IMG/VR virus record: IMGVR_UViG_3300046004_001292 | Location: 1,395-65,394 of that record | Reading direction: 5' to 3' (one strand) | Length of the DNA stretch: 64,000 nucleotides | Origin: a virus | Lineage: Duplodnaviria; Caudoviricetes | In this document: positions 36,511-40,888 of the stretch, one piece after another | How positions within the stretch are numbered: position 1 is the first letter of the stretch | Layout of the letters: each line of letters opens with the position of its first letter | The notes under the pieces: generated by a model | What the model was told of the DNA's origin: nothing | The model's database searches: none | What the model saw: the letters and a program-made list of their open reading frames with translations, nothing else | Translations under genes and position numbers: made by a program

Positions 36511-37536
36511 TTAGAACGCCCCGCCTTGGTAGCCCATGGGCTGTTGTTGCTGCTGCGGTTGCTGGATTGGCAGTTGCATTGGTTGCTGTTGCTGCATTGA
36601 GCGGTTTTGCGTCTGTTGGCCAAAACCACCAAAGCCGCCGCCACCCATGAACGGGTTCTGCATCTGCTGGCCGTAGCCGCCCATGCCGCCAAAACCACCA
36701 AAGCCGCCACCGCCCATGAAGGGGTTCATTTGCTGTTGGCCAAAGCCGCCCATGCCCCCGCCCATGAAGGGGTTCATCTGTTGTTGGCCAAAGCCACCGT
36801 AGCCGCCAAAGCCGCCCCCGCCCATGAAGGGGTTCATCTGCTGGCCAAAGCCGCCCATGAACGGGTTCATTTGCTGTTGGCCAAAACCACCAAAGCCGCC
36901 GCCACCCATGAAGGGATTCATCTGCTGTTGGCCAAAACCACCAAAGCCGCCACCGCCCATGAAGGGGTTCTGCTGCTGTTGGCCAAAGCCGTTGTAGCGG
37001 CCACCCAAAGGCCTGTTTTGGCGGGATGGGCGGCTCATCTGCTGCTGGGGATCGTAATCGCTGCGCGGGCCATCGGCAGATAGTAGGGGTCCCCGACCGT
37101 CATAGGTTCCCATCATGCCGGGCGTGTCCCGACCATCCCGGTACGTGCCTGTGGTTTCATCAAAGTCGGGAGTGCCCCCAATGTAGCCAAGGTCGTTGTT
37201 CTGCGTAGGTGGTGGGTTCTTTATGCGGTGTGGGCCGCGAGGACCAAACATAACGGGGTCGCTGCCCTCAAACGGCAGGGGTGTTGTTCCGCCGGTTTGC
37301 GGAGGGTAACCCGGGGGGCGCATGCCGCCATCGCCGTCCATGATGACCGGCTCTTGGCCATATCCCGGAGGCAGTTTGTTGGTGGGGCGGTTTGTCGTCC
37401 CACCCAGCATGCCCGGTTGCCGCTGGCTGTAACGGGGATCGTCTGACGACAAAGGGCGCAGGTCGCGGGACTCTGCGCCAGTTGCAGGGTTGTATTGCGA
37501 GCCGCCGTACACGGGGCCGGATGGGTACTGGTACAT
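36511..37536 (-). CDS. Low-complexity, prion-like protein with QQQMNPFMGGGGFGGFG repeats
   Basis: Open 341-aa frame abutting both neighbours (TAATG coupling); seven NPFMGG repeat units. Confidence 0.7.
   Translation of the reverse strand: MYQYPSGPVYGGSQYNPATGAESRDLRPLSSDDPRYSQRQPGMLGGTTNRPTNKLPPGYGQEPVIMDGDGGMRPPGYPPQTGGTTPLPFEGSDPVMFGPRGPHRIKNPPPTQNNDLGYIGGTPDFDETTGTYRDGRDTPGMMGTYDGRGPLLSADGPRSDYDPQQQMSRPSRQNRPLGGRYNGFGQQQQNPFMGGGGFGGFGQQQMNPFMGGGGFGGFGQQQMNPFMGGFGQQMNPFMGGGGFGGYGGFGQQQMNPFMGGGMGGFGQQQMNPFMGGGGFGGFGGMGGYGQQMQNPFMGGGGFGGFGQQTQNRSMQQQQPMQLPIQQPQQQQQPMGYQGGAF
36614..36990 (-). repeat. Coding tandem repeat, seven units of about 36-69 nt
   Basis: Recurrent CCCATGAA(G/C)GG(G/A)TTC and TGGCCAAA blocks, with synonymous variation between units. 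Confidence 0.9.
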
Positions 37537-37769
37537 TATCTGAACCTCGCGGTTTTTGCTGCCACTTTGGGCGGCTGTTTCACAAACTGCTTGCCCACGG
37601 CTTTACCCGCACGCTTGGCTTTTGTGGTGGCCGCATACTCTGCGGGGCTGAGCGATTTTATCGCCTTCTCTGGCAAATAACGCTCCCCCGTCTTGGAAGA
37701 CGGCTTCCCACTCTTGGTGCGCCACTTCTGGTCGCCCCAGTCTTTGAGGGATTGCTGGGGCGCTTTCAT
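37536..37769 (-). CDS. Small basic protein, DUF5872-like C-terminal half
   Basis: QSLKDW..QKW...ERYLP.KA...LS...Y. Confidence 0.65.
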   Translation of the reverse strand: MKAPQQSLKDWGDQKWRTKSGKPSSKTGERYLPEKAIKSLSPAEYAATTKAKRAGKAVGKQFVKQPPKVAAKTARFR

Positions 37770-38170
37770 TACACCATCCGACCTTTGGTCTTACCGCGTT
37801 GAGCGCAGCCATCGGCGCGTTTGGAGGCAGAAACAACCCCGCCTTTTTTCATGCCGCGAGCTTCCCGGCGTTCTTCCGCAGCGGCTTCTTTACGAGCTTG
37901 GCGCACGGTCGGATCGTCCGCAGATTCCCCGACGGTTTTATCACCTGCACGCCACACTTTGTCTTGTGCTTTGCCTGCAGCATAACGTGCGCCAGCGCTG
38001 CGGGAAGTACCGTACCCACCATCGTCCTGACCCACCATACGTGCCAGTTTACGCCCCGTAGGCTCTTTCATGGCGTTGCGATCTTCGTTAAAAACGAGAC
38101 CTAGCTCCGTAAAATCTTCAAGGCGCTTCTCTTCCTTGAGCCGCTTGGCGTTTGGGGTTTCTTTAGTCAC
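37769..38170 (-). CDS. Hypothetical protein with C-terminal MKKGG...RADGCAQRGKTKG tag
   Basis: GGAGG RBS before GTG 38170. Confidence 0.65.
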   Translation of the reverse strand: MTKETPNAKRLKEEKRLEDFTELGLVFNEDRNAMKEPTGRKLARMVGQDDGGYGTSRSAGARYAAGKAQDKVWRAGDKTVGESADDPTVRQARKEAAAEERREARGMKKGGVVSASKRADGCAQRGKTKGRMV

Positions 38171-38438
38171 GGTAGCCACCTCCGGCTGCTTTGTATTTCT
38201 TGGCCACAAGCTGCGCTTTGCGGGCTGACCACTGGCCTGCCCCGGTGCCCTGCGTTGCAGCAGCTTTGACTTGGCTCACGATACGCTTGCGCAGATCGGG
38301 CTTGGTGTAGTTGCCAGCCGCATTGACTTTGCCGCCTTCAGCGTACTGCGTGAAGTCGGTGTCATCCCGGCGTGCTTTTTTCACGCCTTTGGGCATCTTG
38401 GAAGGGAGCACTGCCCCCATGCCGCGACTGGCCATCAT
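38163..38438 (-). CDS. Small basic protein, DUF5872-like N-terminal half
   Basis: YAEGG, then NYTKP.LR...GQWSARKAQL....YK..GGGY. Confidence 0.7.
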   Translation of the reverse strand: MMASRGMGAVLPSKMPKGVKKARRDDTDFTQYAEGGKVNAAGNYTKPDLRKRIVSQVKAAATQGTGAGQWSARKAQLVAKKYKAAGGGYRD

Positions 38439-38439
38439 G

Positions 38440-38769
38440 TCAGCAGGCCTTGCCGCCCATGGCCATCTTGACCATGGTGCCCTTGGTGTGACCCTTGGAC
38501 ACGCAGCCGTCGGCACGCGTGACGCCGCCCTTGGCCATTTTTTTCATCGGCATGTCCGCTTTAGCACCTGCCTTGTTTTTCGCAATCATCGCTTTGAAAG
38601 CGGGGTTCATTTTCGTTGCCATATCGCCACCTTTTGAAAATTTGCGGCCCTTGTCCGCGTTGGAAAAATCTTTGCCCACGGACTGTGGGACACCTGTTTT
38701 CTTCGCAAAGGCTGGGTTGTTGGCCACAGCCGCCATGAAGTTGTGTTGCTTTTTACTCGTGCTGGGCAT
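38440..38769 (-). CDS. Small basic protein with three xxGG tags
   Basis: MPSTSKKQHNFMAAVA...FSKGG...MAKGG...RADGC..KG.TKG...MAMGG. Confidence 0.7.
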   Translation of the reverse strand: MPSTSKKQHNFMAAVANNPAFAKKTGVPQSVGKDFSNADKGRKFSKGGDMATKMNPAFKAMIAKNKAGAKADMPMKKMAKGGVTRADGCVSKGHTKGTMVKMAMGGKAC

Positions 38770-38998
38770 TGCCGCCTCGCAGGTTGTCAATCTTGCGCTC
38801 CAGCCGATCAAACCGGTCCATCAACTGCTGCATGTCGGCCCGGAACTCCGAGCGCGTGATGTGATCCCGTGCCACTTCCTCGCGGGTGCGGTTGAGCAGA
38901 ATGCCAAGACGATTGATCTCGGCAAACCTTTCTTTCAAAACGAACCCCAGCATGGCCACAACGGCTGTGAGCACAAGGTTCCAGACCATCATTTCCAT
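38753..38998 (-). CDS. Single-TM plus coiled-coil protein
   Basis: Hydrophobic N-terminus, then LNRTREEVARDH...DRLERKID. Confidence 0.7.
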   Translation of the reverse strand: MEMMVWNLVLTAVVAMLGFVLKERFAEINRLGILLNRTREEVARDHITRSEFRADMQQLMDRFDRLERKIDNLRGGNAQHE

Positions 38999-38999
38999 G

Positions 39000-39254
39000 T
39001 CAGCACTTCCACGCCCGCAGGCTCTTGTTGATGCGGGAGTTCGGGTCCTTCTTGGCCTTCTCTCCGGTCAGCTTCTCTTTCATGCCTTCCATACGGGCAC
39101 AAAAAGAGTCGCGGCGTTTGCCGCCCTCTGGCTGGGGAGCCTTCAGGCCGGGTTTGCCGGGGTTGGCCTTGTTGTACGAGGCGCGCCCTTTCGCGTTCAG
39201 GCCACCCTTTTCGGATTTGCCTTCTTTGCGTGTCCATGCAGGCGACTTAGCCAT
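39000..39254 (-). CDS. Small basic protein
   Basis: GGLNAKGRASY...RRDSFCARM...SRINKSLRAWKC. Confidence 0.75.
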   Translation of the reverse strand: MAKSPAWTRKEGKSEKGGLNAKGRASYNKANPGKPGLKAPQPEGGKRRDSFCARMEGMKEKLTGEKAKKDPNSRINKSLRAWKC

Positions 39255-39534
39255 AGAACACCGTGATTTTTGCGGCGGCTGGGAGCGTCACATGGACGTT
39301 CGTACGAAACAAAATCCCTTGGCCGGGAAGTGGCATCGTGATTGGTTGCGTGCCCGTTGCAATGTTGAACTGCAACAAGATGGTGCCGCCTGCGCCGCCA
39401 TCACGAAAAATAACATCCCCGGCGGTTCCGCCAGAAATGCAGTGATAGGCTCTGACGCGAGTGCGGTACGCCACCACGGTAGCCGTAGCTTCGGTGTGTA
39501 CCGATAGGACGTCGGTTTGCATCGTCATAATCAA
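39247..39534 (-). CDS. Small beta-rich virion protein
   Basis: AGGAG RBS; PGQGILF...TVFYG. Confidence 0.7.
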   Translation of the reverse strand: MIMTMQTDVLSVHTEATATVVAYRTRVRAYHCISGGTAGDVIFRDGGAGGTILLQFNIATGTQPITMPLPGQGILFRTNVHVTLPAAAKITVFYG

Positions 39535-39571
39535 TCTCCTGTTTTGCAGAGGCCGAGGCCCCCGAGACTAA

Positions 39572-39808
39572 TTAACCGGCGGAAACTTTGAGGGTGCCTG
39601 CATCGTTCCAGAGACGGCCAGCAACTGTGGGGTCTGCTGTTGGCAGTGCGGTCATGGAGATGGATGCGTTGGTCAGCGATGCGACGCCAGAAGCTGTCAG
39701 CGTGGTAGCTGCAACAGCGCCGGTAACGGTGCCAGTGACGTTGCCAGTGATGTTGCCCTCAAAACCGTTGTCGGATTTGACGGGACCGGAGAAGGTAGTG
39801 CGTGCCAT
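39572..39808 (-). CDS. Small virion (head fibre/decoration-like) protein
   Basis: MARTTFSGPV start; LPTADP.VAG.LWND.G.LKVSAG end. Confidence 0.7.
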   Translation of the reverse strand: MARTTFSGPVKSDNGFEGNITGNVTGTVTGAVAATTLTASGVASLTNASISMTALPTADPTVAGRLWNDAGTLKVSAG

Positions 39809-39890
39809 GATGGGTTCCTCATGCGGTTAAGGCGTATCTGTCTGCATGACGTCGGCCCGGAGCCGTCAGATACACCGGAAAGTCCGGGGA
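39809..39890 (-). ncRNA. Candidate cis-regulatory double-pseudoknot leader RNA
   Basis: 10-bp stem with a G-U pair valid on the - strand, plus two 6-bp loop pairings, one of which overlaps the SD. Confidence 0.55.
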
Positions 39891-39905
39891 GTGTGGGCAA
39901 TATAA

Positions 39906-39940
39906 CCCAAAAGAAAAGGGCCCACAAGGGGCCCTTCTCA
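39906..39940 (-). terminator. Intrinsic terminator after the major capsid gene
   Basis: AAGGGCCC-CTTGT-GGGCCCTT followed by TTCTTTT on the - strand. Confidence 0.85.
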
Positions 39941-39955
39941 TTTAAGCCCAAGGGC

Positions 39956-40888
39956 TTAGGACGAACCGGAGCTGCCCCAGATACCCAATGGGTCAGACCA
40001 GCCGAACGAATAACGCTCGCGGGCCTTGTAGCGGACGTTGCCGGTGTCGAAATCACCATCCATCGAGGTGGCCAAGGCGGCGCGCTCGAAGTGCTTCAGG
40101 CCGTTTGGAACGTCTGTGGTCAGGAACCAAGCGTTGTTGTCGGTCAAGAAGTGGTTGACGGTGTAGCCACCGGAGATGGTGCCCATCTGCTTCAACGCGT
40201 TGATGTCGTTGTCGGCAGTGCCCACACGCAGTTCGGTGTCCAGCAAGCGCTTGGCAACGAACATCAGTGATGGAGGGATCACCAGCTTGACTGGCTTGGC
40301 TGCAATCAGCAGTTGACGCTCGTCCGTCCAAGCAGCGATCTGGATCGTTGCGTTTTCCAGCGACGTCTCGTTCAAGTCCACACCAGTTGTTGGGCTGTTG
40401 TAGTTCACGCCGCCGCCCACGAGTGGGTGGCCAACGCGAGTGCCGGAGCTGTTGTTGCCGAACAAGGAGACGCCGTCGCCGCCGGGGGCAGCACCGGAGA
40501 AGCCAGTGTTCAACACGGACGCAGCTTTGACCTGCTTGGTGTAGGCCATGCCACGGGCCAGTGCCTTGGTGTAGCGGGCGGACAAGCTGTCGTACAGGTT
40601 GTCTTCCACAGCTTCTTCAGTGATGGAGAAGCCCAGAGCGATGGTTTCGTGGGTGTAGCGAGCAGTGAAGGCTTCTTGCGCGTTGTCGTAAGCGATGGCG
40701 GAGCCTTCGTTCTTGACAGGTGCAGCACCAAAGCCGGACAGCTTGGTTTCTTCTTCGAACGAACGCTCAGATTTCTCTGTTTCGTACAGTTCTTTGTGCT
40801 CTTCGCCGTAGCGTTTGTACTCCAAACCGAACAAGGCGTTCAGGCCGGGGAGCAGCTCTTTGAGCAGTTGTGCGCGTGAAATTGCCAT
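39956..40888 (-). CDS. Major capsid protein
   Basis: 310 aa; follows the scaffold and decoration genes and precedes a strong terminator; AARYTHET-like ARYTHETIALGF.ITEEA and YKARERYSFGWSD motifs. Confidence 0.85.
   Translation of the reverse strand: MAISRAQLLKELLPGLNALFGLEYKRYGEEHKELYETEKSERSFEEETKLSGFGAAPVKNEGSAIAYDNAQEAFTARYTHETIALGFSITEEAVEDNLYDSLSARYTKALARGMAYTKQVKAASVLNTGFSGAAPGGDGVSLFGNNSSGTRVGHPLVGGGVNYNSPTTGVDLNETSLENATIQIAAWTDERQLLIAAKPVKLVIPPSLMFVAKRLLDTELRVGTADNDINALKQMGTISGGYTVNHFLTDNNAWFLTTDVPNGLKHFERAALATSMDGDFDTGNVRYKARERYSFGWSDPLGIWGSSGSS

Follow-up and report, generated by a model that had tools for sequence, protein, structure and literature searches.

Comparative evidence for a double-pseudoknot RNA leader between the capsid gene and a variable, putative surface-protein gene in aquatic phages, and its putative role in translation

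The DNA analyzed in this study (hereafter the window) is a 64-kb stretch of the IMG/VR virus record IMGVR_UViG_3300046004_001292 (Duplodnaviria; Caudoviricetes; positions 1,395 to 65,394) and makes up nearly the entire complete 65.4-kb record. Its gene content is that of a podophage, with a family A DNA polymerase, a SNF2 helicase, terminase, portal, SU10-type adaptors and tail fibres; a Pfam scan of 69 open reading frames (ORFs) of the window recovered no phage RNA polymerase and no recognisable RNA polymerase of the phage's own. On the minus strand the major capsid gene is followed by an intrinsic terminator with a stem of 11 base pairs (bp), the hexamer TATATT, a leader of about 84 nucleotides (nt) and a gene for a protein of 78 amino acids (aa). 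A reading of the sequence alone (hereafter the original prediction) had proposed that this leader folds into a double-pseudoknot RNA occluding the Shine-Dalgarno (SD) sequence of the 78-aa gene. The features of the locus, with the main stem designated M, the inner hairpin Y and the two pseudoknots PK1 and PK2, are as follows.

39956-40888, minus strand: gene of the major capsid protein (310 aa; match to a PHROG major head protein), the upstream neighbour of the leader
39905-39939, minus strand: intrinsic terminator of the capsid gene, 11-bp stem (39939-39913) plus U tract, from a terminator scan
39904-39899, minus strand: -10-like hexamer TATATT, with a predicted transcription start at about A39892
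39806-39898, minus strand: covariance-model match covering the whole leader to the AUG (model R1, 70.6 bits; model R2, 66 bits)
39888-39883, minus strand: 5' strand of PK1, CCCGGA, pairing with UCCGGG in the loop of Y (39861-39856)
39876-39867, minus strand: 5' strand of M, GGUGUAUCUG, 10 bp, predicted by RNAalifold, with 10 of 10 pairs varying on both sides
39867-39865, 39853-39851 and 39842-39840, minus strand: GAC triplets 1, 2 and 3 at the junctions
39865-39853, minus strand: Y, C-G-G-C/G-C-C-G (GGC-UCCGG-GCC at 39864-39854), with 97-98% of alignment cells paired
39849-39844, minus strand: 5' strand of PK2, UCAUGC, pairing with GCAUGA, with 6 of 6 pairs varying on both sides
39840-39831, minus strand: 3' strand of M, CAGAUACGCC, partner of GGUGUAUCUG, beginning with the C of the third GAC
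39824-39819, minus strand: 3' strand of PK2, GCAUGA, whose last two bases are the first two of the SD (2-nt overlap)
39820-39816, minus strand: SD sequence GAGGA, 7 nt before the AUG
39572-39808, minus strand: gene of the 78-aa protein (from the ORF list), starting MARTTFSGPVKSDNGF, conserved at the N-terminus and variable in the body

All pairings of the original prediction are present on the minus strand, where the fold extends over 39809-39892, and its architecture of a main stem, an inner hairpin, two pseudoknots and three GAC triplets at the junctions is borne out by compensatory changes in related phages. From 5' to 3' the helices are ordered as the 5' strand of PK1, the 5' strand of M, Y with the PK1 partner in its loop, the 5' strand of PK2, the 3' strand of M and the 3' strand of PK2. 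Y is flanked by the A of the first GAC and the AC of the second, and its loop (39861-39856) constitutes the 3' strand of PK1. M contains a single U.G wobble (39874/39833), which the other strand would read as C.A.

Relatives were collected by a scan of IMG/VR with the capsid protein, which gave at least 599 confirmed stretches; the motif was checked in the best 80 of these (capsid identity 79-100%). A gene starting M..T.F.GPV is found in 46 of the 80 loci and in the cultured phages Pag-Yong1 and DSL-LC04. At the nucleotide level the capsid gene of the window is about 70% identical to the annotated capsid gene of Pag-Yong1 and 66% identical to that of DSL-LC04.

For the comparative analysis 45 leaders (window, DSL-LC04 and 43 IMG/VR loci) were aligned in MAFFT without fitting to the structure, leaving out loci L021 and L046 as duplicates and L001 and L078 as lacking the element by eye. 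The proposed helices were paired in 90.2% of 1037 alignment cells, as opposed to 22.4-44.1% when the 3' partners were slid by 1-3 columns, and 21 of the 24 pairs varied on both sides. The covariation score was 0.499, compared with at most 0.135 for the controls, and was matched by none of 500 shuffles. RNAalifold applied to the same alignment independently returned exactly M (10 pairs) and Y (3 pairs). Two covariance models were built in addition, each fitted to two of the helices only, which allowed the other two to be assessed on an alignment independent of them. Model R1, which fits M and Y and leaves PK1 and PK2 unfitted, matched 72 of 83 sources (the window, DSL-LC04 and 70 of the 80 IMG/VR loci); in its alignment 90.8% of the cells were paired (23-40% when slid), 22 of 24 pairs were double-changed and the score was 0.628. 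Model R2, which fits PK1 and PK2 and leaves M and Y unfitted, matched 73 of the 83 sources, including 71 of the 80 loci, with 93.5% of the cells paired (23-43% when slid), 22 of 24 pairs double-changed and a score of 0.687. Covariation in homologous loci, on which the original prediction had been staked, is therefore present in all three alignments (21-22 of 24 pairs double-changed; scores of 0.50-0.69, with the controls at 0.14 or below). We regard the leader, on these comparative sequence grounds, as confirmed to be a real, strongly conserved structured RNA.

The sequence variation behind these figures extends to every helix. M occurs in 44 sequence versions among 70 distinct leaders, and its closing pair, formed by the G of the first GAC and the C of the third, is exchanged from G-C to A-U in 11 leaders. 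Y is closed by the C of the first GAC and the G of the second, and its middle pair is UA in 31, AU in 30, GC in 7 and CG in 2 leaders. PK1 is paired in 98.3% of cells, with 4 of 5 pairs double-changed in the R2 alignment, and has at least eight core versions among the 70 leaders (e.g., CCGGG/CCCGG, CUGGG/CCCAG, CUAGG/CCUAG, CUCGG/CCGAG and CCUAG/CUAGG). PK2 forms at least 6 contiguous bp in 69 of the 70 leaders and occurs in about 20 sequence versions, among them ACAUGC/GCAUGU, ACAAGC/GCUUGU, AUAUAC/GUAUAU, UAGUAG/CUACUA, GUAGCAG/CUGCUAC, AUGCAA/UUGCAU and CCUCAAG/UUUGAGG. The only bases outside the helices that are conserved to 96-100% are the A of the first GAC, the AC of the second and the GA of the third; such near-invariant unpaired junction bases point to a precise three-dimensional fold or a binding site. 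There are 78 G.U cells against 15 A.C cells, which identifies the RNA of the sense (minus) strand as the folded strand, as had been argued from the single wobble in the window.

The 5' strand of PK1 can alternatively pair with the linker just before M (39875-39888, minus strand; CCGGA/UCCGG in the window). A competing 5' hairpin of this kind with at least 4 bp is possible in 62 of 70 leaders, largely owing to palindromic CCGG/CUAG cores; three CUGG-type leaders have the partner CCAG, so the hairpin is not solely an effect of palindromes. It would compete with PK1 and the two outer pairs of M, perhaps as an intermediate of folding or as an alternative state.

The element is present in 71 of the best 80 IMG/VR capsid loci, in phage DSL-LC04 and in Pelagibacter phage HTVC023P. 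It is single copy, with one match in the window with filters off and one in each of five out of five near-complete relatives. HTVC023P is a cultured marine phage whose leader has 31% G+C and was included in neither model, and it scores 52.8 bits with R2. Its leader lies after the capsid terminator and a TATAAT hexamer and before gp41 (starting MANTTFQGPV), and the four helices all form from new sequences (M, AUUUUGUAG/CUACAAAAU; PK1, CCUAG/CUAGG; PK2, GUAUAG/CUAUAC), with the three GAC triplets intact and AGGAG immediately after PK2. In HTVC027P the copy lies before gp62 and is diverged, scoring a weak 10 bits. The copies in HTVC023P and DSL-LC04 were found by the covariance models only; a blastn search of 50,697 phage records with the 95-nt leader gave no match, the query being too short and diverged. 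Nine of the 80 loci had no match; in four of them the sequence following the capsid gene is shorter than 100 nt. The loci of Pag-Yong1 and Roseobacter phage CRP-902 gave no covariance-model match either. In the Planktothrix phage Pag-Yong1 (L001, 3958-4019) a 9-bp stem, GACCCGGGG/CCCCGGGUC, was seen by eye between the capsid terminator and the MSTTLFPAPVK gene, and the segment CCGUCUCC in its loop has its complement, GGAGACGG, over the SD; this site may be a simpler pseudoknot of analogous kind that pairs with the SD.

The element appears to be the complete 5' untranslated region (UTR) of the gene after the capsid terminator (39809-39892, minus strand). The possible -10 element noted originally just upstream recurs among relatives, since 62 of 71 loci have a -10-like hexamer 6-14 nt upstream of PK1; 40 loci carry it as TATATT, and in 49 of the 62 it ends 7-9 nt before PK1. 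This spacing places the predicted start 0-3 nt before PK1. Among the 71 loci a perfect TTGACA at 16 nt occurs in 10 and a -35 element with at least four of six matches in 16. The window copy has no -35 element, and a consensus promoter scan called no promoter there. In locus L005, which has a different upstream context and 98% capsid identity, the similarity to the window resumes exactly at PK1. Contigs of the RNA-library runs X1, X9 and X10, from three studies, cover the leader and stop at 39867-39892, short of the terminator, contigs being unable to fix RNA ends, and run X2 has depth over 39815-39896 with no leader piece among its listed contigs. None of the four RNA-library runs spans 39897-39937, a gap that by itself proves nothing. 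Together the contigs hint weakly at transcripts starting with the leader.

At its other end the element is tied to the start of translation. All 73 matches end at the start region of an ORF, with ATG as the last three bases in 69; in the others (L041, L067, L074 and L079) the start adjoins the end of the leader match. The register between PK2 and the SD among the 70 distinct leaders falls into three classes.

44 of 70 leaders: 3' strand of PK2 flush with the SD
16 of 70 leaders: 3' strand of PK2 overlapping the SD by 1-5 nt (2 nt in the window)
10 of 70 leaders: 3' strand of PK2 ending 2-5 nt upstream of the SD

The conservation of this register links the leader to translation initiation. Occlusion of the SD, as proposed in the original prediction, holds in part: two of the five SD bases are covered in the window and overlap occurs in the second class, with L011, L035 and L049 taking the SD bases GAGG into the 3' strand of PK2, but the helix stops flush with or short of the SD in the other two classes. 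Three further connections were considered and dropped, namely pairing of the Y loop with the SD (complementarity of at most 3 bp or limited to one subtype), a link to CsrA-type GGA sites, and an anti-SD in the linker between PK1 and M.

The genes headed by the leader are far less uniform, being in every case hypervariable and putatively for capsid-surface proteins of the cement or fibre type. Behind the 73 leaders lie ORFs of 75-246 aa with unrelated bodies and at least four types of N-terminus (M..TTFSGPV.S.NGF, MGFATHLGPWLLGT, MALSTTQSIWRSGGG and MARSTFEGPILSG), and in L004 and L005, whose capsids are 98-100% identical, the gene body differs from that of the window. The leader is thus more conserved than the surface-protein cassette behind it. 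For the 151-aa type (L082) an AlphaFold (AF2) model of modest confidence was obtained (predicted local distance difference test score, pLDDT, 63.4). In a Foldseek search of the PDB with this model four of the six best matches were the capsid entries of Pam1 (E-value 5e-4), Ralstonia phage GP4 and Helicobacter phage KHP30 and a KHP40 entry, which is a trimeric cement protein. The homologue in DSL-LC04 is annotated as "cement protein", in agreement with these fold matches, and a PDB sequence search with it gave nothing significant. We suggest that the 151-aa type folds like capsid cement proteins, a model-based assignment limited by the modest pLDDT. The 78-aa type of the window shares only the N-terminus with the 151-aa type; it matched only DUF4847 below threshold in Pfam, and only unnamed viral clusters and weak fibre-like leads in the Atlas search.

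A comparison with known RNA families was made by scanning the whole window against Rfam 15 (4227 models), which gave no match at gathering thresholds. With E-values up to 10 no model fitted the leader in the region 39500-40100; matches centred on the terminator (39894-39990) or elsewhere, and the weak ones reaching the 5' edge of the leader (39876-39905) were of terminator type. The scan that had been called for at the outset therefore assigned the leader to no family. The earlier by-eye verdict that it resembles neither hammerhead nor hepatitis delta virus (HDV) ribozymes also stands, as its helix order differs from that of HDV and no Rfam ribozyme matched at E-values up to 10. HDV-like ribozymes (order P1-P2-P3-P1'-P1.1-P4-P2') were accordingly rejected, as were twister, pistol, hatchet and hammerhead. 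The preQ1, SAM-II/V, NAD+-II, fluoride and guanidine-III riboswitches were rejected as well, having no Rfam match to a leader whose downstream gene encodes a putative virion surface protein.

As to its generic kind, the conserved sense-strand structure and fixed position before the SD are those expected from sequence of a structured cis-regulatory mRNA leader. The closest resemblance is to the nested pseudoknot of the S4 alpha operon, the rpsO (S15) pseudoknot and the T4 gene 32 leader, which likewise place one or more 5'-UTR pseudoknots at or beside the ribosome-binding site of one gene, also have conserved unpaired bases and share the dosage-sensitive phage or assembly setting. The leader differs from them in having a helix order of its own and no sequence or model match. 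By analogy it would work most like these protein-bound pseudoknot operators while belonging to none of their families. Small translational riboswitches (preQ1-II/III, SAM-II/V and NAD+-II), as generally described, are likewise shorter than 100 nt and combine a pseudoknot 3' strand at the SD with invariant junction bases; the leader, in contrast, heads a putative virion-protein gene, leaves the SD mostly unpaired and has no Rfam match. Flavivirus exoribonuclease-resistant RNAs (xrRNAs), as far as their general architecture goes, likewise pair the 5' end inward and an internal element with the 3' tail around a central junction. The roles are swapped in the leader, where a hairpin loop takes up the 5' end and the tail is paired with a junction strand, and no xrRNA model matched. 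xrRNAs are not known from a bacterial or phage setting.

The nearest published work is a survey that mined IMG/VR intergenic regions and reported 8,495 unnamed "DNAVirus_N" candidate csRNAs (PMC10690425). In the portion of that article compared here, gp32 is described as repressing its own translation via a 5' pseudoknot, and the leaders discussed are those of GP20, GP32, terminase, resolvase, RusA and a major capsid protein, with no mention of a cement-gene leader or a double pseudoknot (PMC10690425). The DNAVirus_N candidates, which also derive from IMG/VR, and the Rfam families GP20-a/b are of the same kind as the leader, i.e., covarying intergenic RNAs directly upstream of a phage gene. 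CMfinder-type models would hold only the nested part of the leader, and this part may already be among the 8,495 candidates. Literature searches found no description of the leader, the closest source being this survey, whose 8,495-candidate supplement lay outside the comparison. By its sequence the leader would represent a new RNA family, absent from Rfam, of a known kind (pseudoknotted 5'-UTR cis-elements).

The most plausible class of function, in keeping with the original prediction, would be that of a cis-regulatory switch or protein-binding RNA. Our preferred reading within this class, to which we give an even chance, is a cis-acting translational operator that is probably bound by a factor. 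The leader would act in cis on translation initiation, with PK1 tying down the 5' end of the transcript and PK2 docking a helix flush against the SD, so that the state of the knot would set the access of the 30S subunit and probably also the lifetime of the mRNA. A trans-acting factor, conceivably and most likely a phage protein reading the invariant junction, would stabilise the knot, and synthesis of the surface (cement or fibre) protein could thereby be tuned or delayed relative to capsid assembly. Given the hypervariable downstream protein, classical autogenous control would need either its short N-terminal peptide or another phage protein.

Several results weigh against this operator. Taken alone, the window leader is not unusually stable, as its nested minimum free energy of -27.3 kcal/mol corresponds to z = -0.19 and 86 of 200 shuffles fold equally well; a contiguous helix of at least 10 bp arose in 142 of 3000 mononucleotide shuffles. 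The structure of the window copy is thus not beyond chance, and the case for the leader rests on its relatives. Since the SD is single-stranded in most leaders, simple occlusion is not a general mechanism. Pfam searches of the 69 window ORFs revealed no candidate RNA-binding regulator, and the downstream proteins are too variable to be the common binder, save for their short N-termini, which are themselves of at least four types. Five loci (L027, L042, L052, L060 and L078) have 400-1500 nt of downstream flank and no match with filters off. In L078 (from 3087 onwards) the MAQTRFSGPVVSDNGFEG gene (M..T.FSGPV) lacks the leader and seemingly follows straight after the upstream ORF, so that the leader is not obligatory for the gene family.

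The rival that survives best, and which we still consider rather unlikely, is a constitutive guard of the 5' end combined with an insulator of the ribosome-binding site, acting with no ligand or protein switch. The knot would bury the 5' triphosphate against 5'-end-dependent decay and keep the SD exposed regardless of the variable coding cassette or read-through RNA beside it, in the extreme as an exoribonuclease-resistant knot. Bacterial mRNAs such as ompA gain stability from 5'-terminal hairpins that lie no more than a few nt from the end, and PK1 starts 0-3 nt from the predicted +1. The unpaired SD of most leaders would suit such an insulator, as would the free swapping of cassettes, with different genes behind capsids that are 98-100% identical and similarity breaking just past the conserved N-terminus. 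A plain hairpin would do for end protection, however, and the combination of two pseudoknots with unpaired junction bases that stay near-invariant across 31-60% G+C speaks for a more specialised function.

Those same junction bases (A, AC and GA), lying between two pseudoknots, could instead form the pocket of a sensor, either a new aptamer or riboswitch-like class or an operator coupled to assembly, which its own product would recognise through the conserved N-terminal peptide. We consider a sensor distinctly unlikely; if it were true, translation of the cement or fibre protein would be gated by the state of the host or by the supply of unassembled protein. A riboswitch in the strict sense, in which the junction of M, Y and PK2 binds a small molecule or ion and binding stabilises PK2 by or over the SD, is very doubtful. 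Its size, pseudoknots and SD-adjacent helix are like those generally known from small translational riboswitches, its junction bases are invariant and PK2 includes the SD in some subtypes, but the controlled gene encodes a putative virion surface protein and no metabolic or transport function, the SD is not sequestered in most members and no riboswitch of Rfam matched. Evidence for an alternative fold is also limited, given that the competing hairpins (62 of 70) arise mostly from palindromic CCGG/CUAG cores.

Phage genomes are rich in small ribozymes, and a compact double pseudoknot with few invariant unpaired bases would suit a new class of self-cleaving ribozyme by which the leader is processed. 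We nevertheless judge this quite improbable in view of the lack of an Rfam ribozyme match at E-values up to 10 and of a helix order that, in a comparison of topologies by hand, is unlike HDV-like ribozymes or twister. The RNA-library contigs have no common internal end suggestive of cleavage, which contigs cannot really show. Highly improbable is put-like antitermination, in which a cis-acting RNA would modify the RNA polymerase for a late operon starting at the leader: the position directly behind a putative promoter, heading a run of small genes with a terminator-like site downstream (39440-39413), would be appropriate, but a role in transcription does not explain why the spacing of PK2 and the SD is so tightly conserved, and neither a put-like nor any other antiterminator family was matched in Rfam. 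A conserved DNA site (a promoter or operator, a homing-endonuclease target or a recombination joint for cassette exchange) is almost certainly not the explanation and is already disfavoured, for although ORFs are inserted between the capsid gene and the leader in 19 loci, a sign of mobile DNA, 21-22 of 24 double-changed pairs and the G.U to A.C ratio of 78:15 are signatures of a transcribed, folded strand.

The ORFs inserted in these 19 related loci encode 97-254 aa. Three are GIY-YIG/NUMOD3 homing endonucleases above the Pfam cutoffs (L005, 2543-3304; L023, 2554-3306; L073, 2523-3227), and that of L071 is a methyltransferase. The inserted ORFs of L041 and L079 have weak, below-cutoff Mutator-like matches, about eight belong to an unnamed family of about 200 aa (...YYFTG.PC..GHIA.RKTKG...), and the remaining ones have no Pfam family above the cutoff. 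The insertions mark the spot as a hotspot of mobile DNA. In the loci that carry them the leader is always intact and is then preceded by a TTGACA-type promoter. The conserved leader DNA could be the homing target. Being more conserved than its gene, the leader offers a landmark for this hotspot of cassette exchange and homing endonucleases.

Whatever its mode of action, a double pseudoknot around a three-way junction that takes up the whole 5' UTR is an unusual architecture. It would mark post-transcriptional control of a virion surface protein, an assembly step for which few RNA regulators are known, in an abundant, aquatic group of phages (at least 599 IMG/VR stretches with a capsid relative, with the motif checked in the best 80). 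The presence of the leader in the cultured phages HTVC023P and DSL-LC04 makes its function directly testable.

Some further features of the window were recorded. A second terminator-like hairpin (12-bp stem and T tract; 39413-39440, minus strand) lies within a 95-aa ORF (39247-39534) and may be a chance match or an attenuator inside the run of small genes. Directly downstream of the leader-driven gene and this ORF, five consecutive, very Lys/Arg-rich ORFs of 77-146 aa, one of them with DUF6321, occupy 37536-39254 (minus strand), together with an 81-aa ORF matching a PHROG lipoprotein family. These basic ORFs could encode internal virion or nucleic-acid-binding proteins, and the run is probably the "small gene cluster" meant in the original prediction. 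Between the small basic genes and an adaptor gene lies a 341-aa protein (36511-37536, minus strand) whose C-terminal two thirds consist of about nine tandem copies of a motif like FGQQQMNPFMGGGGFGG; the repeat is of low complexity, rich in Gly, Phe and Gln, and has no Pfam or PHROG family. A 2,619-aa ORF with a C-terminal LPD38 domain ("large polyvalent protein") is located in the tail and ejection part of the genome (10133-17989, minus strand).

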